Shown here piece after piece: positions 1,712-63,490 of a stretch of DNA of 64,000 nt. The translations under genes were made by a program, and so were the position numbers. The stretch is taken from positions 16,643 through 80,642 of the forward strand of contig PXRX01000043.1 in assembly GCA_003023195.1 (NCBI GenBank), read 5' to 3'. Origin of the DNA: Halobacteriales archaeon QS_8_69_26 (lineage in GTDB: Archaea; Halobacteriota; Halobacteria; Halobacteriales; SW-7-71-33). The notes below the pieces were generated by a model, which saw nothing but the letters and a program-made list of their open reading frames with translations, made no database searches and had not been told where the DNA came from. Every line of letters starts with the position of its first letter. Position 1 is the stretch's first letter.

Positions 1712-2554
1712 TCACTCCAGCGTCGCCTCGGTGTCGATCCCGTACACATCGCGGGGCGTCTCGACGTGGGCGGTGCGGACCGCCTCGTCGTACCCCTCCT
1801 CCAGCAGCCACCGCACCCGCCGGGGGACCGTCCTGGGCCCCATCACCGCGCCCGGCTTGTCCGGGTCGTCGACGAAGTCGGTCTCCATCAGGAACGGATC
1901 GCCGGCCTCGGCCGCCCGTTCCAGCCGGTCTTTCTCGCTCATCACGCTCGGGACCGCCCCCGCCAGGCGGCCGTACGCGTAGTGCTTGACGACGTTTCCC
2001 GGATCCAGCCCGGCTTCGCTCGCCAGGTCCGCGATGTCGGTCAGGTCCTCGCTGGCCTCGGTGTGGAGCTGGACCGCACAGCCCACCTCGGCGCCCAGTT
2101 CGAAGGCGTGGGCCATCACGTCGTTCGAGGCCGCCCAGACGGCGTCGGACACGTCGTAGTGCGGGCGGCCGGACTTCAGCGCCAGCGCCCGGCCGTCCTC
2201 GACGTACTCCGCGGCGACCGACAGGCCGTCCTGCATGAGGTTCCTTGCCTCCGCCGGGTCGTGCCCCTCGTCGTCGACCAGTTTCGAGACGAGTCCGGGG
2301 TGGACGCCGAGCACCGGCCACGCCCGGCCGTCCAGCACCCCCGTCGCGCGCTCGACGGCCTCGATGGTCGCCTCGAAGACCGGCCGCCAGTCGTCGCCCC
2401 GTTCCGGGACCGGCCCGAGGTGCCAGGACGGCTTGTTCACCACCAGCAGGTGGGTGCCGCCGCTGCGGGCGAAGTCCTCGACGGCGTCGATCCCCCTCCC
2501 GTGTTCGGGGTCGAGGTGGAGGTGGTCGTCCAGCACCGGCGTGTCCAGGTCCAT
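1712..2554 (-). CDS. TatD-family metal-dependent hydrolase
   Basis: Track ORF 1712..3379 is a composite. Its first ~275 aa are R/P/T-rich and overlap the methyltransferase gene. From the internal ATG (cat 2552-2554) the product reads MDLDTPVLDDHLHLDPEHGRG...VQLHTEASED...LMETDFVDD. This has the N-terminal HxH and the later His/Asp ligands typical of TatD/amidohydrolases. The 843 nt are in frame. Confidence 0.75.
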   Translation of the reverse strand: MDLDTPVLDDHLHLDPEHGRGIDAVEDFARSGGTHLLVVNKPSWHLGPVPERGDDWRPVFEATIEAVERATGVLDGRAWPVLGVHPGLVSKLVDDEGHDPAEARNLMQDGLSVAAEYVEDGRALALKSGRPHYDVSDAVWAASNDVMAHAFELGAEVGCAVQLHTEASEDLTDIADLASEAGLDPGNVVKHYAYGRLAGAVPSVMSEKDRLERAAEAGDPFLMETDFVDDPDKPGAVMGPRTVPRRVRWLLEEGYDEAVRTAHVETPRDVYGIDTEATLE

Positions 2555-2642
2555 GCCTGATCGGGGGTGGATAGGGTCCCGCGCCGCCTTATGTCGCGTG
2601 GTTCGACGGCCCGCCGACCGGAGGGTCGTGTCCGGACCCCCC

Positions 2643-3407
2643 TCAGTCCCCGGCCCCGGATCCAGGTTCGACCTCGGCGTAACAGTTGCCGCTGGAGACC
2701 CACGACTCCCGGACGCGGAGGTCGCTCGCCGCCAGGTCCGCCGCGAACTCGTCGGGGTCGTAGACGTGGTAGAACCGGTCGACCGTCTGCCCGTCCGGGA
2801 GCGTCCAGTCGACGGTGGTGTCGAACCCCTCCTCGCGGTCGAACCGGTCGTGGGTCGTGGCCCAGGCCGACACCAGCGCCCGACCCCCCGGGGCCAGTAC
2901 CCGGCCGAGTTCGTCGAGGCTCGCGACCCGGCGCGACCGGTCCGGGAGGTGGTGGACCGTCGCGACGTAGGCCGCCAGGTCCACCCGGTCGTCCCTGACC
3001 GGGAGGGTCGCGGCGTCGGCCTGGATCCGATCGAACCGTGCGGCGTCGGCCGCCTCGCCGTCGGCCAGTCGGTCCCCGGCGACCGCCAGGAGCGGCCTGC
3101 TGACGTCGACACAGAGGACCCGCCCGACCCGTTCGGCCAGGACCGCGGCGTGGCGGCCGTTCCCACAGCCGACGTCGAGGCCGACTGTCCCGTCGGGGCT
3201 GGCGTCCACGAACTCCCGCACCTCGGGCCAGGGGCTGTGGCGGGTCTTCGCGAAGTGTTCCGCGATGCGGTCGTAGGTCTCCCGGACGGTCGCCGGATCG
3301 CGGGGCAGGTTCCCGGCGTCGGCGGTCCGGTCGCGGTCCGGTTCGTCGGCGTCGTCGGCCCCGTCTCGGCGCGGTTCACCGGCGCCGGGAGGGGTGTCGG
3401 GGGCCAT
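2643..3407 (-). CDS. class I SAM-dependent methyltransferase (Trm9/type-11-like)
   Basis: 254-aa ORF with motif I VGLDVGCGNGR and post-I CVDVS. The remaining layout (RVLAPGGRALVS) is typical of small RNA/small-molecule methyltransferases. Confidence 0.8.
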   Translation of the reverse strand: MAPDTPPGAGEPRRDGADDADEPDRDRTADAGNLPRDPATVRETYDRIAEHFAKTRHSPWPEVREFVDASPDGTVGLDVGCGNGRHAAVLAERVGRVLCVDVSRPLLAVAGDRLADGEAADAARFDRIQADAATLPVRDDRVDLAAYVATVHHLPDRSRRVASLDELGRVLAPGGRALVSAWATTHDRFDREEGFDTTVDWTLPDGQTVDRFYHVYDPDEFAADLAASDLRVRESWVSSGNCYAEVEPGSGAGD

Positions 3408-3413
3408 CGGGGG

Positions 3414-5717
3414 CTACAGCAGGAGGAGGAAGGTCACGTAGCCGATGGCGACCAGGACGGTCACGTGTTTCGCACCGTTGCGGACGTCGCCGGCGCTCAA
3501 CTGGCCGCCGATGAGCCCGGAGCAGGCACCCTGGATGACGGCGGTGTGGAGGAACAGTTGCTGGTAGGCCGCCTCGTCGAGTTCGCCGAGTTGCGAGACG
3601 ACCGGGACCGGGTTCGTCTCTCCGCCGGCACCCGACCCCGCGGTGACCGACGACTCGGGGAGGCTGGGGATCAGCACCTCGTTGAGCACGCCGACGATGA
3701 ACAGGAACACGAAGAAGGCGACGTAGACGACCATCAGGTAGGTCAGCATCTCCTGGCGGCGGTCGCGCTTGAGCCGCCGGTCGGCCTTGGCCTGGTTGGC
3801 CGCGATCCGCAGGACGGTTCCGAGGTTGCCCGAGGCCTTCATCGCCTCGGTCATCAGCGTGACCACTCGCGAGACGCTCTCGGTCCTGATCCGCGACTCG
3901 AAGCGCTTGAGTGCCGTCTCGACGTCGGCCCCCCACTGGATGTCGTGCCAGACGATGTCGAGTTCGTCGTCCAGTGCCCCGAGTTCGGTCCCCCGGACCC
4001 GGCGGAGACTCTCGACGACGGTCATGCCGGCCTCGTTGAGACTCGCCAGCCTGTCCAGGAAGTCCGGGATGGTGCGCTCGATGGCCTCTATCCGGCGAGT
4101 GTGGATCTCGTAGGCGATGGCGAAGGTCCCCGACAGGAAGAGCAGCGACTGGATCAGCAGGTCGTCGAGTTCGCCGACCGTGAGCGTCCCGTCGGCGATG
4201 AGCGTGGGAAGCCGGATCCCGACCAGGAACACCGCCAGCGGGAAGGTCACCCACAGGAGACTGGTCGGCCGGCGGATCACGGTCCTGATGGGCTGGCCGA
4301 GGCGGCGCTGTAGTTCCCGGAACCGCTTGTAGGCCTCGAGCCGTTCGATGTTGGCCCGGTCGCGCTGGACGGTCTCGGTGTCGCGGTAGCCCGCGCCCGA
4401 CCGGCCGTCCCTGTCGTCGTCCTCGGCACCGGACCGGTCCGTTCCGGTGTCGGTGGACTGGTCCGTCCCGGTGGTGCCGGACTGGTCCATACCGGCGGTG
4501 TCCGACGGCTCCGCTCCCGGGTCGGTGCCGCCGTCGGCGATCCGGGGGGGAGCCGCGGTCCCGGCGGCGTCGGACGGGTCGAGGCCCGCCTCGTCGGCCA
4601 CGTCGTCGACCCTGCGCACCCCCTCGGGACGCATCGCTATCTCTATCTCCTCCTCGGTCGGGTCCCGTCGCGAGAGGTTGTCGACGACCGTCGAGAGGTA
4701 GACGATGAACCCGAGGTTCCCCAGGGGGATGACGACGTAGGTGATGAGCCGCAGGATCGGCAGGGCGTCGCCGATCGTTATCCCGATAACGACGAGGAGG
4801 GTGATGAGAAAGAGCGGGCCGGCGACGCCGAGGGTGACGTAGGCCTCGGCCAGCGTCGCCAGCAACTCCAGGAGCCGCTCCTGCTGTGCCTCGGCCTCCT
4901 GGCGGTACTCGTTGTACTGGCGGTGGAGGAACTCGGAGAGGGACCCGCCTGTCTGGAGGACCGAGGAGAGGTTCTCGGCGAACTCCCGGAACTTCCCGGA
5001 CGGGGAGCGCCGGGCCATCGTCTGGACCGCGGTGACGACGTCCATCCCGAACACGTCGATGTTCCGGACGGCGACCCCGACCTCCTCGGCGGCGTGCCCG
5101 TAGACGTGGTCGTTCTCGGCCAGGATCCGCATCACCTGCGGAAACGCCATCCCCGACCGGGAGAGCGCGTAGATGAACGAGACGGTCATCGGCATGCTGA
5201 TGTCGATCTGTCGCTCGCGCTCGTCGGCGACGTACCTGGGGACGTACCACCGGTAGCCGATGACCGACACCGCAGTGAGCAGTCCCAGTAGTAGCCCTGC
5301 CCCGACGTTGTAGGCGGTCAGCGTCGGTCCGTCCGGGGTCGTCGCCCCCATGTGGACCGCCAGGAACTGGAGGCTGTCGGGGAGGTACTCGACCCCGGTC
5401 GCCTCGGGCAACCCGAGCAGGATGAACAGTCCCCACATGAGGTAGATCCCCGCGATACCGCCGAAAACTCCCCAGACCAGCCCACGGAGGCCGGTCTCGG
5501 CGGCGTACTGCCGGTAGGTGGTGGCCATGTGCGCCGCCCTGAGGTTCGCCCGCCGCTGCTGGCGACGCCGCTCGGAGACGGTGTCCGCGAGGTTCCCGAA
5601 CAGGAGTATCGCCAGCCGGGTCGTGAACCGGTCCAGGGGCGGCCAGGCCGGCGCCAGCACCACCGGCAGGACGAGGAGGACCGCGAGCGCCAGCGGGAAG
5701 AACTGGATCGCGCCCAT
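3414..5717 (-). CDS. pilC: type IV pilus/archaellum-type membrane platform protein (T2SS-F / FlaJ / TadC / PilC family)
   Basis: 767-aa polytopic membrane protein with two T2SSF-like halves. The halves are joined by a D/T/G/S-rich linker (…DPSDAAGTAAPP…GTDQSTDTGTDRSG…). It starts 2 nt after the ATPase gene stop, which indicates an operon. Confidence 0.8.
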   Translation of the reverse strand: MGAIQFFPLALAVLLVLPVVLAPAWPPLDRFTTRLAILLFGNLADTVSERRRQQRRANLRAAHMATTYRQYAAETGLRGLVWGVFGGIAGIYLMWGLFILLGLPEATGVEYLPDSLQFLAVHMGATTPDGPTLTAYNVGAGLLLGLLTAVSVIGYRWYVPRYVADERERQIDISMPMTVSFIYALSRSGMAFPQVMRILAENDHVYGHAAEEVGVAVRNIDVFGMDVVTAVQTMARRSPSGKFREFAENLSSVLQTGGSLSEFLHRQYNEYRQEAEAQQERLLELLATLAEAYVTLGVAGPLFLITLLVVIGITIGDALPILRLITYVVIPLGNLGFIVYLSTVVDNLSRRDPTEEEIEIAMRPEGVRRVDDVADEAGLDPSDAAGTAAPPRIADGGTDPGAEPSDTAGMDQSGTTGTDQSTDTGTDRSGAEDDDRDGRSGAGYRDTETVQRDRANIERLEAYKRFRELQRRLGQPIRTVIRRPTSLLWVTFPLAVFLVGIRLPTLIADGTLTVGELDDLLIQSLLFLSGTFAIAYEIHTRRIEAIERTIPDFLDRLASLNEAGMTVVESLRRVRGTELGALDDELDIVWHDIQWGADVETALKRFESRIRTESVSRVVTLMTEAMKASGNLGTVLRIAANQAKADRRLKRDRRQEMLTYLMVVYVAFFVFLFIVGVLNEVLIPSLPESSVTAGSGAGGETNPVPVVSQLGELDEAAYQQLFLHTAVIQGACSGLIGGQLSAGDVRNGAKHVTVLVAIGYVTFLLLL

Positions 5718-8241: not shown

Positions 8242-8832
8242 TCAGTCGGTGGTCGTCCCGGCGTCCCCCTCGGTCGTCCCCGCTGGATCGTCCGGCGCAT
8301 CCGTCGTCCCCGCTGGATCGTCCGGCGCATCCGTCGTCCCCGCTCCTTCGTCCAGGGTCTCCGTCCCCTCGACGGTCGATCCGGTGGGATCGTCGGCTCC
8401 GTCCGTCCTCCGGGCGGCCTCGTCTCCGTCCGTCCTCCGGGCGGCCTCGTCTCCGGCGTCGCTCCCGGTCGCCTCGTCTCCGTCCGTCCTCCGGGCGGCC
8501 TCGTCTCCGGCGTCGCTCCCGGTCGCCTCGCCGAGGGGACCGTGGATGGTTTCGTGGAACCCGATCACCAGTGCGGGCACCACCACCATGAAAATGTGCT
8601 CCTCGATGGGGATCCCCAGGAGGTCTATTCCGGTCCGGGCGACGATGTCGAACACCCCGACTTCCAGGGTGTACCAGTCCCAGACGTACGCGATGGGGTA
8701 CAGCGCTGCGACGGTCCTGGCGGCCCGGCGGACCGCACCGGCCCTGACCAGGAGCGCCAGGGCGACGCTCCCGAAGACCACCTCGGTGACGATGTAGGTG
8801 TACGGGCCGAGCACCGTGATGTCCGGGAGCAC
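8242..8832 (-). CDS. single lycopene-cyclase-domain (CrtYc/Yd-like) membrane protein with repetitive acidic C-terminal tail
   Basis: Track ORF 8242..9273 overlaps the permease gene. I place the start at GTG (cac 8830-8832), giving MLPDITVLGPYTYIVTEVVFGSVALALLV...YPIAYVWDWYTLEVGVFD...GIPIEEHIFMVVVPALVIGFHE. The WDxxxxxxG...PxEE pattern matches heterodimeric-type lycopene cyclase domains. The last ~95 aa are tandem repeats. Confidence 0.55.
   Translation of the reverse strand: MLPDITVLGPYTYIVTEVVFGSVALALLVRAGAVRRAARTVAALYPIAYVWDWYTLEVGVFDIVARTGIDLLGIPIEEHIFMVVVPALVIGFHETIHGPLGEATGSDAGDEAARRTDGDEATGSDAGDEAARRTDGDEAARRTDGADDPTGSTVEGTETLDEGAGTTDAPDDPAGTTDAPDDPAGTTEGDAGTTTD
8273..8344. repeat. 30-bp tandem repeat x2.4 inside the tail of the cyclase-domain gene
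   Basis: gtcgtccccgctggatcgtccggcgcatcc occurs at 8273 and 8303, with a partial copy at 8333. It encodes GTTDAPDDPA repeats. Confidence 0.9.
8411..8542. repeat. nested 27/54-bp tandem repeats inside the same tail
   Basis: gtccgtcctccgggcggcctcgtctcc occurs at 8411, 8438 and 8492. It alternates with ggcgtcgctcccggtcgcctcgtctcc at 8465 and 8519. Together they encode (ATGSDAGDEAARRTDGDE)n. Confidence 0.9.
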
Positions 8833-13525: not shown

Positions 13526-13684
13526 TCGGGACGGGGATCGGTCGGGGTCGGCTTGGCTCAGGTCAGGGATCGGTCGGGGTCGGCGCGGCCAGCCCAGGGA
13601 TCGGTCGGGGTCGGCGCGGCTCAGGCCAGGGATCGGCCGGGGTCGGCGCGGCTCAGGCCAGGGATCGCTCGGGGTCGCCGTGGA
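13526..13684. repeat. ~32-bp tandem repeat x5 that starts inside the 3' end (stop codon included) of the nucleoside hydrolase gene
   Basis: Variants of tcaggccagggatcggYcggggtcggcgcggc occur at 13526, 13558, 13590, 13621 and 13653. The last copy is the true gene end (…GDPERSLA*). Confidence 0.9.
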
Positions 13685-31368: not shown

Positions 31369-31405
31369 ATGTAGGGGGATCGAGGGCCCGTCTTTGTGGG
31401 CCCCC

Positions 31406-31543
31406 GTCGGCGTCCCTGCGGCCGTCGGCGTCCCTGCGGCCGTCGGCGTCCCTGCGGCCGGCGGATCACCGCTGCCTCTCGTGGTCGGCGTACCCGCGGC
31501 CGGCAGATCACCGCTGGCTCTCGTGGTCGGCGTACCCGTGGCC
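31406..31543. repeat. 18-bp x3 plus 42-bp x2 tandem repeats; the last copy is the 3' end (with stop) of the small membrane gene
   Basis: gtcggcgtccctgcggcc occurs at 31406, 31424 and 31442. ggcggatcaccgctgcctctcgtggtcggcgtacccgcggcc spans 31460-31501, and ggcagatcaccgctggctctcgtggtcggcgtacccgtggcc spans 31502-31543. The stop codon complement tca is at 31508. Confidence 0.9.
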
Positions 31544-31759
31544 GGCGAGGAGGGCCGTCCCGTTGACGCCGACCAGCAACAGGAAGGTCGCGACGTCGGT
31601 CGGTCGCTCGATGCCGCCGGCGAGCAACGCGACGAGGGCCACCGGAAGCGCGACCGCCACCCAGAACGCGGCCGCGGCACCGATCCGGGCCGCAACGGCG
31701 GCGACGCCGTCGCTCGGGGCGGCGGTACCGGCGGCGTCGTGGGTGTCGTCTCGGGTCAC
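31508..31759 (-). CDS. small two-helix membrane protein, function unknown
   Basis: 83-aa ORF with hydrophobic stretches AAAAFWVAVALPVALVALLAGG and VATFLLLVGVNGTALLAG. GC3 is high. Confidence 0.5.
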   Translation of the reverse strand: MTRDDTHDAAGTAAPSDGVAAVAARIGAAAAFWVAVALPVALVALLAGGIERPTDVATFLLLVGVNGTALLAGHGYADHESQR

Positions 31760-46967: not shown

Positions 46968-47546
46968 ATGGACGGACTCGACCGTCTCCGCGCGACACTC
47001 CGGGACGCACCGGTCGTCGACATGGGCGACTACGACTACGTGGTCACCCCCGTCACCGACGGGATCCCGCCGGTCGAGCCCGAACTGCTCCGCGAGATCG
47101 CGACGGCGGTCGCCGAGGTTGCCGACGTCGAGGCCGCCGACAAGATAGTGGCGCCGGAGGCGATGGGGATCCACCACGCGACTGCGCTCTCCCTGGAGAC
47201 GGGGACGCCCTTCGTGGTGGTGCGAAAGCGCTCCTACGGCCTCCCGGGCGAGGTGAACGTCCACCAGGAGACCGGCTACGCGGAGTCGGAGCTCTACGTC
47301 AACTACGTCGACGAGGGCGACCGGGTCGTCGTCGTCGACGACATGTTCTCGACGGGCGGTACCCTGACCGCCGTCTGTGACGCCCTCGAATCGATCGGGG
47401 CTGACATTCTCGACGCCGTCACCGTCCTCTCTCGGGGGGACCCGGACCCCGACTTGCCGACCGACCTCGCTCACTTGCTGTGGATCGACCTCCAGGACGG
47501 CAAGGTGGTCGTCCGGGAGGAGCCACCGGCGGACGCCGGGGACTGA
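46968..47546 (+). CDS. hpt: archaeal hypoxanthine/guanine phosphoribosyltransferase
   Basis: From ATG 46968 the product is MDGLDRLRATLRDAPVVDMGDYDYVVTPVTDGIP... The PRPP-binding loop is VVVVDDMFSTGGT. The track start GTG 46947 is less likely. Confidence 0.85.
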   Translation: MDGLDRLRATLRDAPVVDMGDYDYVVTPVTDGIPPVEPELLREIATAVAEVADVEAADKIVAPEAMGIHHATALSLETGTPFVVVRKRSYGLPGEVNVHQETGYAESELYVNYVDEGDRVVVVDDMFSTGGTLTAVCDALESIGADILDAVTVLSRGDPDPDLPTDLAHLLWIDLQDGKVVVREEPPADAGD

Positions 47547-47617
47547 CCCTGGGACCGCCGCCGACCGATCCCGGGGCCGGGGACTGACCCTGGGACCGCC
47601 GCCGACCGATCCCGGGA
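47536..47617. repeat. 41-bp tandem duplication whose first copy contains the hpt stop codon
   Basis: ccggggactgaccctgggaccgccgccgaccgatcccgggg spans 47536-47576 (TGA at 47544-47546). It is repeated at 47577-47617 with one change at the last base. Confidence 0.9.
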
Positions 47618-47687
47618 CCGGGGGATCCCCGGTCGTCCGGGGACCGGGGTCGACAGCCATTTGCCCGCGCCGGTCGACACCGGGTGT

Positions 47688-60430: not shown

Positions 60431-60470
60431 TACCGATAATAGGTAAAAACTTACATTACTGTCACTTGTG
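60431..60470 (+). promoter_or_regulatory. AT-rich promoter region of the rhodopsin gene
   Basis: taccgataataggtaaaaacttacattactgtcacttgtg is by far the most AT-rich stretch for hundreds of bp. It ends ~17 nt before the ATG at 60487, consistent with a TATA box and a very short leader. Confidence 0.45.
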
Positions 60471-60486
60471 GACGATCGGGTGTACC

Positions 60487-61278
60487 ATGCCAACACCAGG
60501 CGACGAGGGGATATGGCTCTGGATCGGCACGGCCGGAATGCTCCTGGGAATGCTGTACTTCATCGCCCGTGGCTGGGGCGACGAGGACGAACGACGCCAG
60601 GAGTTCTACATCGTCACGATATTCATCACGGCCATCGCGTTCGTGAACTACCTCGCGATGGCGCTGGGGTTCGGCCTCACGACGGTCGAGGTCGGCGGGG
60701 AGGAACTCCCCATCTACTGGGCCCGGTACACCGACTGGTTCTTCACGACGCCGCTGCTGCTGATCGACCTGGGCCTGCTCGCCGGCGCGAACCGGAACCA
60801 GCTCTCGGCCCTCGTCGGCATCGACATGCTGATGATCGCGACCGGCGCCCTGGCGACCCTGTCGGGCGGCGAGGGACCACTGGACGCGGGCACCCGCCGA
60901 CTCATCTGGTGGGGGGTCAGCACGGGGCTGTTGCTCGTGCTGCTGTACTTCCTGTACGGTGCGCTCGGGCGGCAGGTACGGCAACTGAGCGGTGACGTGC
61001 AGTCGAAGTTCGGCACCTTGCGCACGCTCATCGTAGTCGTGTGGCTGGTCTACCCGGTCTGGTGGCTGCTCGGCACGGAGGGGTTCGAAATCATCGGGCT
61101 CTACATCGAGACGGCCGGGTTCATGGTCATCGACCTGATCGCCAAGGTCGGGTTCGGGATCATCCTGCTGTCGAGCCGGGAGGTACTCGACGCGGCCGGG
61201 ACCGACCGACCCGAGACCCCGCCAGCGAGGGACGACGCCCCTCCGGAGTCCGATCGGGCGGTCGACCCGGAAGCCTGA
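60487..61278 (+). CDS. bop: bacteriorhodopsin-type light-driven proton pump (cruxrhodopsin-like)
   Basis: From ATG 60487 the product is [30 protein letters not shown]... Helix C is [24 protein letters not shown], giving R82, D85, T89 and D96 equivalents (the DTD motif). Also present are WLVYPVWW (W182/Y185/P186/W189), TEG and IET (E194/E204), and [13 protein letters not shown] (D212/K216 Schiff-base lysine). Confidence 0.9.
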
Positions 61279-61379
61279 CCGGCCCGGGTCGGACGTCACC
61301 CGGACTGTCGACGGGGCCGGCCCTCGGGGAGGCCGTCCCGGCGGTCAGAGTTCACGGGTCCCTCCGCGCCGGGCCAGGG

Positions 61380-61770
61380 GCCTCGTCAACTGGACTCGGA
61401 GAAGTGCGTAGGCCGGGATCTGAACCCGATGGCGAGACGGTCCTGCTCGCTCGCTGCGCTCGCTTGCAGACTGCGACTCGCGTGGTTCGAATCCAGTACG
61501 CACTTCTCTCTCCGTTGCTGATTCGCGCCGCTCCGCGTTGCTGCGCGGCGCTCATCGACGGACTTCGAGAGAAGTGCGTTGGCCGGGATTTGAACCCGAT
61601 GGCGAGACGGTCCTGCTCGCTCGCTGCGCTCGCTTGCAGGCTGCGACTCGCGTGGTTCGAATCCAGTACGCACTTCTCTCTCCGTAGCTGATTCGCGCCG
61701 CTCCGCGTTGCTGCGCGGCGCTCATCGACGGACTTCGAGAGAAGTGCGTTGGCCGGGATTTGAACCCGGG
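61380..61770. repeat. 170-bp tandem units x2 (plus the partial third unit that is the real tRNA 3' end)
   Basis: The period is measured from gacttcgagagaagtgcgtt at 61561 and 61731, and from the diverged ggactcggagaagtgcgta at 61391. Each unit begins with a copy of the last 24 nt of tRNA-Gly. See findings. Confidence 0.9.
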
Positions 61771-61815
61771 TTATGTCCGTGGCAGGGACATGTGATACCG
61801 CTACACCACCAACGC
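61745..61815 (-). tRNA. tRNA-Gly (anticodon GCC), no intron, CCA not encoded
   Basis: The reverse complement is GCGTTGG TG GTGTAGCGGTATCAC A TGTCC CTGCCAC GGACA TAAC CCGGG TTCAAAT CCCGG CCAACGC A. It has a 7-bp acceptor stem, a 5-bp anticodon stem with loop CUGCCAC, and a canonical T arm. Confidence 0.9.
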
Positions 61816-61932
61816 TCGGCACGAAATCGTTCGACGAGGGACGGAATAAGCCTTCCGAAATGCCGTCGGTGCGACCGATCCGACCCACCATTTTGACGGT
61901 CGATCGCCCGCGTGTGCGAGGTTACGAGGAAT

Positions 61933-61954
61933 GTTACAGTAACGTTACTGTAAC
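61933..61954. promoter_or_regulatory. perfect 22-bp AT-rich palindrome
   Basis: gttacagtaac|gttactgtaac is exactly self-complementary. It lies ~120 bp upstream of the tRNA-Gly 5' end in a locally low-GC non-coding stretch. Confidence 0.5.
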
Positions 61955-62191
61955 GGTGGAAGGCCGACGGATCGGGGTACCGTCCCGGTGCCCCTCTTGT
62001 CACTCCGTCACGTGGCGGGGCAACGGTTAATGGATAGACGGGCGTCGTCACTCCCGATGGATTGATCCGCCAGGTCGGGGGTTGCCCGCCACGCGTTTCG
62101 CGGCCGTCGCTCACCGGTAGCCGTACGGAGGACCGCGCGGCACGGTAGCGGCCGGACCCCCGATCCACTCGTTTTTCGATTCGCCCTCGGT

Positions 62192-62275
62192 GGGACCCGT
62201 CGGTTCGACCGGTCACCACTCGTCGGTTCGACTGGTCACCACTCGTCGGTTCGACTGGTCACCACCCGACGGTCC
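62192..62275. repeat. 23-bp tandem repeat x~3
   Basis: ggtcaccactcgtcggttcgact occurs at 62211 and 62234. A partial copy ggtcaccacccgacggtc lies at 62257 and a partial leading copy at 62192. Confidence 0.9.
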
Positions 62276-62425
62276 CGCCGCTGGCGGGTCGCACGAACCA
62301 TCACCGACGGACGCCAGTTCACATCGACTACCCACACGACCGATGGACCACGACCGACCCCGGAGACGGGAACCGGACGAGACGAATCGAACGCGAACCG
62401 ACCGATCCGAGACGCCACGCATCCG

Positions 62426-63490
62426 ATGACCGACCGAACCATCCCGCGCGACCACATCGAACGAACAGTAGCGACGATCGACCCCGACTGGCGAGTCCTC
62501 GCGGCCGACCCGGCCGAGGGCGGGGCGCTCCCGGTCTACCGCCTCTCCGTCGAGACGCACGCTGGGACCCGGGAGTGCTACCTGAAGGCCAGCCCCGAGG
62601 GCGAGGACCCCTGGATCGACGTCGAGGCCCGCCTCCTCTCGTTGATCGGCGGGGCCACGTCGGTCCCGGTCCCCGAGGTGTACGGCGCGATAGACGAGGG
62701 CGGTGACCTCCCGGCGCCGTGTTTCCTGATGTCGGCCGTCGACGGACGGATCGTCGAGCGACCCGACTTCGGGACGGTCGACCCGTCGGTCCACGAAGGG
62801 ATCGCCCGCTCCGTCGGGGAACACCTGGCCGCCGTCCACGCGCTGGAGCCCTTCGAGGCCTACGGCTACCTGGAGGTGGCCGACGGCGAACCGCTTCGAG
62901 GGGAACGCCCGCCCGCCGACCCGTCGACCGTCCGCGTCGCGGACCCGACGGAGGACTGGCGCGAGCGGATGCGCCTGGAGGGCGACCACGAACTGGAGAA
63001 GGCCGCGGACACCCGCTTCGGCGACGCCGCGGACGGAGTGGCGTCGGTCCTCCACGAGCGCATCGACTGGCTCTCGGGGCCGTTTGAACCGCGGATCTGT
63101 CACGTGGACTTCGCCCTGGAGAACCTGCCCCACGACCCGGAGACGGGCGAGGTGCGGGGAATGATCGACTGGGCCTTCACCGTCGCCGCGCCGCCGGACT
63201 ACGACCTGCTCTACGCCGTCCGGAGTCTCTCCGGGGGGCACCTGCGTCTCGTCCCGGACACCCCGGACCGGCGCGACCTGGTCCGGTCGGCAGTAATCGA
63301 GGGCTACGAGTCGGCGGGATCGACGGCAGTCGTCGAACGCTACCGGGAGAACCGGGACGCCTACAGCCTGCTGGCCAAGGTCCGGGAGGCGAACATCTTC
63401 GAGTCGGCGTTCGACCACCCGGGGATCGGTGGGCAGCGACGGGAGGCGGCCGCCGAGCGCCTCGCGTCCGAACTGGCCGACCCGGGCTGA
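62426..63490 (+). CDS. aminoglycoside-phosphotransferase-fold (APH/choline-kinase family) kinase
   Basis: 354 aa. The Brenner motif is ICHVDFALENL (HxDxxxxN), followed by IDWAF (DxW metal-binding). Confidence 0.75.
   Translation: MTDRTIPRDHIERTVATIDPDWRVLAADPAEGGALPVYRLSVETHAGTRECYLKASPEGEDPWIDVEARLLSLIGGATSVPVPEVYGAIDEGGDLPAPCFLMSAVDGRIVERPDFGTVDPSVHEGIARSVGEHLAAVHALEPFEAYGYLEVADGEPLRGERPPADPSTVRVADPTEDWRERMRLEGDHELEKAADTRFGDAADGVASVLHERIDWLSGPFEPRICHVDFALENLPHDPETGEVRGMIDWAFTVAAPPDYDLLYAVRSLSGGHLRLVPDTPDRRDLVRSAVIEGYESAGSTAVVERYRENRDAYSLLAKVREANIFESAFDHPGIGGQRREAAAERLASELADPG

Follow-up and report, generated by a model that had tools for sequence, protein, structure and literature searches.

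To our knowledge, the repeats of the Escherichia coli tyrT locus and the associated rtT RNA have been known for decades, with their function still unsettled, and have been regarded as a peculiarity of enterobacteria. In E. coli K-12 the sequence GGGGAAGGAT is found approximately 100 nucleotides (nt) upstream of AATCCTTCCCCCACCACCA, and the locus is annotated with the small RNA RttR and with tpr. The rtT RNA is described as taking part in processing of the tyrT transcript and possibly in the stringent response, by an unknown mode of action (bioRxiv 10.1101/2024.07.17.603846). The locus described here, a tRNA-Gly(GCC) gene followed by two tandem units of 170 base pairs (bp), is found in a 64,000-nt stretch of Halobacteriales archaeon QS_8_69_26 (contig PXRX01000043.1, positions 16,643 to 80,642 of the forward strand), which in its whole length is called the window below and is numbered from its first letter. 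Comparison of orthologous loci identifies this array as a member of a widespread, apparently undescribed family of trailer modules behind haloarchaeal tRNA-Gly genes; no description of the haloarchaeal module was found in the literature. Each module consists of H1, a hairpin in the tRNA trailer, and H2, a long hairpin that ends in a copy of the tRNA 3' end. The reading that we favor, and to which we give a slightly better than even chance, is that the units are copies of a native tRNA-Gly(GCC) trailer module beside the rpl3 operon, shuffled by recombination and acting in cis as a structured RNA made by read-through.

The tRNA-Gly(GCC) gene, which has no encoded CCA and has its discriminator A at 61745, lies at 61745..61815 on the minus strand (Rfam tRNA, 66 bits, E 1e-13; also found by ARAGORN), its lower boundary being placed by ARAGORN and Rfam at 61744/61745 and its upper boundary at 61815. 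Over 61392-61768, Tandem Repeats Finder (TRF) reported a period of 170 (2.2 copies, 97% matches), and a repeat search found two 170-nt copies, at 61399-61568 and 61569-61738, that were 98% identical. A 30-mer, GAGAAGTGCGTTGGCCGGGATTTGAACCCG, is present three times, at 61399, 61569, and 61739, and includes the last 24 nt of tRNA-Gly. The tRNA-derived segment of each unit is exactly these 24 nt (tRNA positions 50-73), and the match of the unit to the real tRNA ends at the first T-stem base. A preliminary description of this DNA, made from the sequence without database searches, had noted both the 170-bp tandem units and the 24 nt of tRNA sequence in each, and it was correct on both counts. The proximal pseudo-3' end (61575..61598, minus strand) is identical to tRNA positions 50-73 over all 24 nt, and the distal, terminal one (61405..61428, minus strand) departs from that sequence at 61410 and 61420. 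These two substitutions and two outside the tRNA-derived part (61470 and 61516) make up all four differences between the units; the preliminary description had put the total at about five. With bodies 99% identical and the terminal end 90% identical, the proximal and distal units appear to be the product of one recent local duplication. The stretch beyond the distal unit (61350..61404, minus strand) begins like an H1 trailer in alignment (CUUCUC-CGA-GUCC...) and then diverges, and is probably the old native trailer. The array strings occur nowhere else in the 64-kb window (chance expectation 0-0.1), and a search of the array region against Rfam found no family that covers the unit.

The repeat search also showed that the units contain a 13-nt inverted repeat. 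One arm, GAGAGAAGTGCGT, which is made up of the 8-nt H1 outer stem and the tRNA end TGCGT, is found at 61737..61749 and again at 61567-61579, and the complementary arm, ACGCACTTCTCTC, at 61668-61680 and 61498-61510; these are four matches in the window where 0.1 would be expected. Because the orientation of the arms alternates along the array, each unit contains two abutting hairpins, with spacings of 88 nt and 56 nt. The inverted repeat had been recognized before, with a spacing of ~84 nt that is corrected here to 88 nt, as had the T-loop string GGTTCGAATCC on the plus strand and the GC hairpin gcgccgc...gcggcgc, both of which are present in the units.

The proximal H1 (61673..61744, minus strand) is the tRNA trailer itself, in which the outer stem CUUCUCUC/GAGAGAAG encloses a GC hairpin, with a minimum free energy of -34.5 kcal/mol and a z-score of -3.05; the distal H1 (61503..61574, minus strand) has the same minimum free energy, -34.5 kcal/mol, and a z-score of -3.61. 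RNAalifold on a plain MAFFT alignment recovered the outer helix of H2 alone, so a hand-annotated seed of nine sequences and a covariance model built on it, R1, were needed. R1 matched the proximal H2 (61575..61672) at 61575-61678(-) with 67.4 bits (E 9e-16) and the distal H2 (61405..61502) at 61405-61508(-) with 58.9 bits, both hairpins being on the minus strand, and against dinucleotide shuffles their folds had z-scores of -2.40 (proximal) and -1.94 (distal). Read from 5' to 3', the proximal H2 contains GUGCGU/ACGCAC pairs, an arm antisense to the T-loop and T-stem, covarying inner helices, a GA-GC-GCA-GC-GA cap, and the 3' arm copied from the tRNA.

The single scan of GTDB genomes, which used exact patterns only, matched the tRNA-Gly loci of four Haloferax species and of Natronoarchaeum, and in each of these the tRNA is followed by a trailer hairpin and by a long hairpin that ends in that species' own tRNA 3' end. 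In orthologous loci found with tblastn the tRNA lies divergently upstream of a methyltransferase-rpl3 operon. With the methyltransferase as bait, 80 metagenomic loci were fetched, which show the same gene order around tRNA-Gly, to give 90 sources in all (659 kb). The tRNA-Gly is present in approximately 75 of the 90 sources, and approximately half of those carry one to three pseudo-3' ends at spacings of 65-180 nt. Arrays contain zero to three modules across Haloferax, Natronoarchaeum, Natronorubrum, and approximately 35 metagenomic lineages, the three genera representing three families (Haloferacaceae, Natronoarchaeaceae, and Natrialbaceae). R1 matched the sense strand at more than 30 bits in 40 of the approximately 75 tRNA-bearing loci, in every case directly behind this tRNA, and its search of the 659 kb gave no match away from the tRNA-Gly locus. 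In Natronorubrum bangense JCM 10635, whose genome is complete, the arrangement of tRNA-Gly and two modules occurs twice. The N. bangense replicon NZ_CP031306.1 (827 kb, 'plasmid unnamed1') was seen to carry the rpl3-rpl4 operon and two tRNA-Gly genes; with a ribosomal-protein operon and tRNAs, it behaves like a chromosome or essential replicon.

The architecture is the same across the family. In H1, the first trailer nucleotides (YTTCT...) pair with a complementary stretch approximately 50 nt downstream; 38 distinct H1 sequences from other lineages average a z-score of -3.3, the median number of base pairs in the outer stem is 10, and the stem sequences vary by lineage (CCGAUUUC/GAAAUCGG, UCGACGCC/GGCGUCGA, and UUUUCAGGAUUC/GAAUCCUGAAAA). 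H2 is a rod of 70-130 nt, seen also in the individual folds of 39 H2 sequences. Its 5' arm, GGGAUUUGAAC, runs antisense to the T-loop and 3' T-stem of the tRNA, and its 3' arm repeats the final 20-24 nt of tRNA-Gly from the same host. The rod starts with short base pairs beside the 3' CGCA, followed by helix S1, in which GGGAUUUGAAC pairs with GUUCAAAUCCC. An internal loop separates S1 from helix S2, in which a U.U mismatch is conserved, and S2 leads by way of another loop, small and conserved (UCGCAG / ACCGU in one subtype), to helix S4 and a cap. The cap has the form GA-NN-NNN-N'N'-GA, in which the 2-bp helix covaries; the motif, of which GAGCGAAGCGA is one example, tops both hairpins at most loci, and in the window it is found at 61461, 61533, 61631, and 61703 of the minus strand. 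Such a cap would form tandem G.A pairs around the covarying 2-bp helix and a triloop. It corresponds to no motif that we can name with confidence, and identity with a kink-turn (K-turn) or the related K-loop is not claimed, as the 3-nt bulge is missing.

Several other identities were considered for the unit and rejected. ARAGORN reported the real tRNA-Gly only, Rfam gave no more than a sub-threshold tRNA-Sec-like match (23 bits against a 47-bit threshold), and hand-threaded T-arm and anticodon arms failed; a cloverleaf and a split or permuted tRNA were rejected on these grounds. A bulge-helix-bulge at the base of H2 was rejected, as the loops are 1x3 or 3x1 nt rather than two 3-nt bulges 4 bp apart. 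A protein-coding unit, by analogy with tpr, was rejected because 170 is not a multiple of 3, modules are anywhere between 92 and 194 nt long, and the open reading frames (ORFs) that overlap the unit look like GC-rich artefacts.

Covariation was analyzed in 45 H2 sequences. In this alignment, which was fitted to the R1 model and is made up of mutually related sequences, 83.8% of cells were paired, compared with 73.8% in shuffles and 24-42% in controls with slid partners, and both sides had changed in 107 cells, compared with 36 +/- 5 in shuffles, none of 500 of which reached 107. Compensatory changes were found in six of the eight pairs of S2 and in all five of S4, and helix 1 was 86% paired over the 45 sequences. 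The cap motif was found on the tRNA-sense strand of 37 of the 45 H2 sequences and on the antisense strand of none, with 2.6 expected from shuffles, and in 14 of the 38 H1 sequences; 35 of the 45 H2 sequences folded better on the tRNA-sense strand. Sense-strand folding and the cap motif thus favor the tRNA-sense strand, and the conserved features that are not Watson-Crick pairs argue against plain maintenance of a palindrome at the level of DNA.

Arrays differ in the number of modules between very similar genomes. One metagenomic contig (L001), which encodes an identical kinase and has a left flank 99.99% identical to the window over 9.4 kb, contains one unit where the window contains two. An assembly collapse would have to jump an identical stretch of 82 nt (52 + 30), which is less than the k = 119 in the contig name, so we infer that the one-unit state is a true strain difference rather than a collapse. 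The same contig also has one copy fewer of a nearby 23-bp tandem repeat (CGTCGGTTCGACTGGTCACCACT), which is located at 62198-62273, upstream of the APH-family kinase gene, and has 3.3 copies in the window and 2.4 in L001. In a second pair of loci, with flanks 98-99.6% identical, one (L038) has three modules and the other (L039) has one, and the 265-nt indel between them consists of two modules that are unlike each other.

Fifteen different tRNA tails occur among the loci, and the proximal pseudo-end differs from its own tRNA at 1.3 of 20 nt, compared with 3.7 for tRNA tails taken from other lineages. Among the 11 arrays that have at least two copies, mismatches rise from 0.64 in the first copy to 2.27 in the last, the last copy being more decayed than the first in 8 of the 11 and less decayed in 1. 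Within arrays, the 20-nt ends have a mean identity of 96%, while module bodies have a mean of 68% (44-99%). All modules end in tRNA sequence followed by the same trailer start, which points to misaligned recombination at these joints. The tRNA-derived segment and the common YTTCT trailer start would together serve as the joint for homologous recombination, and misaligned exchange (or slippage), within a polyploid cell or between strains, would add, remove, and shuffle whole modules. Such exchange would also refresh the internal joints and keep them similar to the tRNA; the terminal joint is never refreshed and would therefore decay. The pair in the window would be a recent product of one such exchange. 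The loci compared here are thus consistent with gain and loss of modules by homologous recombination at tRNA-derived joints. As for the origin of the module, a GAATGCG-like motif stands before H2 and likewise in the leader of real tRNAs, there approximately 25 nt after TATA boxes, and the module may descend from a duplicated leader, tRNA, and trailer in which the body was replaced by a hairpin.

The preliminary description had offered a different origin, in which each unit would be, or would be a remnant of, a miniature non-autonomous element that a tyrosine integrase had integrated at the tRNA-Gly 3' end, with the pseudo-ends as displaced attachment (att) sites. Integration classically leaves direct repeats of a tRNA 3' end as its scar, and such repeats flank the units as att scars would. 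Furthermore, the tRNA-Gly(GCC) locus is a genuine integration hot spot: tyrosine integrase genes (PF00589) lie 25-215 nt after the same tRNA at several loci (L022, L024, L042/43, L052, and L056/57), where the sequence ceases to match sister loci precisely at the tRNA 3' end; L059 has a junction sequence similar to these; L061 and L065 have a 1.3-kb AT-rich insert with small ORFs between two tRNA-Gly matches (locus 2300-3754); and in Halobacterium salinarum 91-R6 a 7.5-kb integrase insert duplicates a tRNA-Gly (PMC7002104). Serial insertion beside a tRNA predicts older distal copies and unlike modules, both of which are seen, and there are whole-module indels between close strains, which homologous recombination between the repeats explains equally well. 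However, the real insertions at this tRNA differ from the modules in their junctions, in the length of their direct repeats, and in their kb-size cargo. H1 bears no relation to the junctions of integrase elements (TATCGGCTCTACGAGCC...), and the attP arms of those elements, considered as a source of the module, are unrelated to both H1 and H2. The repeat that flanks the 1.3-kb insert is approximately 45 nt long and starts in the anticodon loop, and the native H1-H2 of these loci lies past the displaced tRNA end. The units have a cargo of 70-170 bp and no integrase: no integrase ORF lies inside the array, and, in agreement with the preliminary description, no relative of the tRNA-Gly-targeting integrase was found in the window, although no general Pfam scan of the window ORFs was made. 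Dispersed copies were likewise not found in the window or elsewhere in the 659 kb; the exact-pattern scan of GTDB gave tRNA-linked single matches only, blastn of phages and plasmids with the module matched only the tRNA, and a pattern scan of IMG/VR gave no matches, results that also led to rejection of a viral or plasmid origin. Finally, copy number differs by whole units between near-identical strains, and in three named families of Halobacteria the module keeps both its synteny and its structure. The integrase reading is therefore largely refuted, and we leave it the slightest probability of all those considered. A separate case is found at locus L026, where a copy of the tRNA-Glu(TTC) 3' end with 2 mismatches lies 563 nt downstream of the gene and is probably an ordinary integration scar.

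A native, structured trailer RNA also has to be weighed against readings that need no mobile element, and several results count against it. G-U and A-C pairs in the helices show no strand bias (45 and 39), in the window itself the plus strands of H1 and H2 fold no worse than the minus strands, and the covariation counts come from related sequences aligned to R1 itself. In many lineages intact modules have been lost and only H1 or fragments kept, so the module is dispensable; four other tRNA genes at related loci have no modules, a small sample on which to judge specificity for tRNA-Gly(GCC); and no promoter-like element is evident inside the modules, though no formal archaeal promoter scan was made. 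Template switching of the 'quasipalindrome correction' type could in principle hold DNA palindromes complementary in the absence of selection. The unit could, on this basis, be a neutral relic, made up of decayed tandem copies of leader, tRNA, and trailer that grow and shrink in number by unequal recombination and have no function, with palindromes kept by template-switch correction. The GAATGCG-like motif before H2 and in real tRNA leaders fits such a descent, as does a hand count in which type-A H2 plus this motif has the length of leader plus tRNA, and intact tRNA-Gly genes do occur in tandem at some orthologous loci. Loss of modules in many lineages and the lack of G-U bias are also as expected of a relic. 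The window pair itself is a plain recent duplication, as the preliminary description had allowed, but the module that was duplicated is old, structured, and family-wide. Moreover, palindrome correction should erase the U.U mismatch and the tandem G.A cap, which are conserved, the cap in 37 of 45 sequences and on one strand only; the inner helices, which have no counterpart in the tRNA, covary; the architecture persists across Haloferacaceae, Natronoarchaeaceae, and Natrialbaceae despite frequent deletion between repeats; and the pseudo-ends remain 96% identical while the bodies fall to 44-70%. A neutral relic is thus unlikely in our estimation, though its probability is appreciable. Alternatively, H1 and H2 might act as DNA rather than RNA, in the form of folded single strands or cruciforms, as an attC-like recombination substrate or a hot spot of replication or recombination. 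The two strands of the window units fold equally well, the absence of G-U bias is what a DNA structure would give, the arrays are cassette-like and joined at a conserved core, and the cap has as its core GCGAAGC, which forms a DNA mini-hairpin of great stability. However, the locus has no associated recombinase, and the joints offer 20-30 nt of plain homology, sufficient for homologous recombination. The modules stand immediately in the path of transcription from a highly expressed gene, and their closest analogue, RtT, is an RNA. A DNA-level site is accordingly given little credence.

If the units are copies of a native trailer module, a role can be sketched from haloarchaeal tRNA biology. 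The module would be transcribed by read-through from the tRNA-Gly promoter, and its RNA would act in cis. Only 9 of 66 trailers contain a run of four T's. With HVO_2564 taken to be rpl3, HVO_2566 and HVO_2567 of Haloferax volcanii would correspond to the tandem tRNA-Gly pair that other Haloferax species have at this locus. HVO_2566->HVO_2567 is a bicistron with one start site (PMC4983044), tRNA trailers are stable in H. volcanii (PMC3495736), and intergenic termination in that species uses T-stretch and TC motifs, with hairpins terminating at partial efficiency (PMC7237163). Together with the scarcity of T runs, these observations make read-through into H1 and H2 plausible. Each H2 with the YTTCT tract would recreate the context of a tRNA 3' end followed by a trailer, so that H2 may serve as a fail-safe site of termination or processing, with hairpin RNAs as products. 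The antisense arm could pair with either the 3' half of the real tRNA or the pseudo-end, and an effect on tRNA-Gly maturation is conceivable. The likely role of the read-through RNA would thus be one in cis, on termination or processing; a parallel exists in the tyrT operon of E. coli, where rtT RNA is produced from the 178-bp repeats. HVO_2566, which has no intron, decreases 14-fold (log2 -3.8) on depletion of the splicing endonuclease and is among the most down-regulated genes (PMC7714728); this unexplained decrease may be related to the trailer module, and it was the reason to look for a bulge-helix-bulge at the base of H2, but no canonical motif of this kind was found in the modules. The earlier suggestion of an array of tRNA-like small RNAs comes close to what the comparative data favor.

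In the window, the tRNA-Gly gene lies between a bacteriorhodopsin-family gene (60466-61278, plus strand) and an APH-family kinase gene (62426-63490, plus strand), which is followed by an RNA methyltransferase (PF02598) and then by the rpl3-rpl4 operon. A perfect 22-bp palindrome, GTTACAGTAAC + GTTACTGTAAC, is located at 61933-61954, approximately 120-140 nt upstream of the tRNA-Gly 5' end, and could be the binding site of a regulator. The window is also unusually rich in other short tandem repeats, to which the preliminary description had alluded; their periods run from 18 to 63 bp (63 TRF rows; for example, 8273-8530, 13534-13677, 31404-31547, and 47535-47623).

Several described systems share features with the module. 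Miniature inverted-repeat transposable elements (MITEs) are also short and have terminal inverted repeats, which are 13 nt long in the window; the modules differ from them in having no dispersed copies and in that the inverted repeats are the stems of two abutting hairpins, and the flanks of neither palindrome share a short direct repeat that could be a target-site duplication. The att duplications of tyrosine integrases (the H. salinarum 91-R6 tRNA-Gly insert and the SNJ2 type) likewise place a direct repeat of the tRNA 3' end downstream of an intact gene, and use the same tRNA-Gly(GCC). Yet real att insertions have kb-size cargo with an integrase, unrelated junctions, and a repeat of approximately 45 nt where both ends are visible, whereas the modules are 92-194 bp, syntenic, structured, and without an integrase. 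Duplication of a tRNA 3' end is thus not always an integrase scar, and these modules will confuse programs that call att sites and genomic islands. In tRNA-like processing elements (the t-element that precedes 5S rRNA in H. volcanii, those of plant mitochondria, and mascRNA), a partial tRNA mimic within a longer transcript could recruit the enzymes that process tRNA ends, as might be imagined for H2. Those elements fold into structures resembling a cloverleaf or minihelix, while the T-loop of H2 is sequestered in a long helix and matches no tRNA model.

The closest likeness is to the E. coli tyrT-tyrV repeats and RtT (RF00391, rttR), which are repeated with a period of 178 bp and 3.1 copies directly behind tRNA-Tyr, compared with 170 bp and 2.2 copies behind tRNA-Gly in the window. 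In both, the unit ends in a copy of the tRNA 3' terminus, which is 19 nt in E. coli (AATCCTTCCCCCACCACCA) and 24 nt in the window, and the outermost helix of RtT pairs an antisense arm with the tRNA-derived segment (GgGaaGGAU...AUCCuuCcC in Rfam), the same design as helix 1 of H2. A fourth E. coli copy lies in the tyrT-tyrV spacer, and in haloarchaea as well a copy is found between tandem tRNA genes; the last copy of the array is partial or decayed in both. The two differ in that RtT is bacterial and follows tRNA-Tyr, while the haloarchaeal module is archaeal and follows tRNA-Gly; CCA is encoded, and is part of the copy, in E. coli but not in the archaeal gene; the annotated tpr ORF has no counterpart in the haloarchaeal module; and the second hairpin, H1, and the GA cap are found only in the latter. 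The RtT model (threshold 45 bits) gave no match at E <= 10 on positions 60800-62400 of the window, and R1 gave none at E <= 1 on the E. coli tyrT locus. In its design the haloarchaeal module is thus a structural analogue of RtT, without detectable homology. A more specific proposal, that the modules are a previously undescribed structured RNA family of several families of Halobacteria, made from the tRNA-Gly(GCC) trailer, and an archaeal counterpart of RtT, which carries a copy of the host tRNA's 3' end locked to an antisense arm, co-evolves with that tRNA, and acts on termination or maturation of the tRNA-Gly transcript, is advanced tentatively, at somewhat less than an even chance. An RtT-like design with clear compensatory evolution is now seen behind another tRNA, in another domain of life, and in dozens of lineages, one of which, Haloferax, offers a genetically tractable archaeal model for it. 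This suggests that RtT and the haloarchaeal module may be convergent forms of a general solution to some problem in the expression of tRNA genes, for example how to terminate transcripts, process their ends, or insulate neighboring genes.

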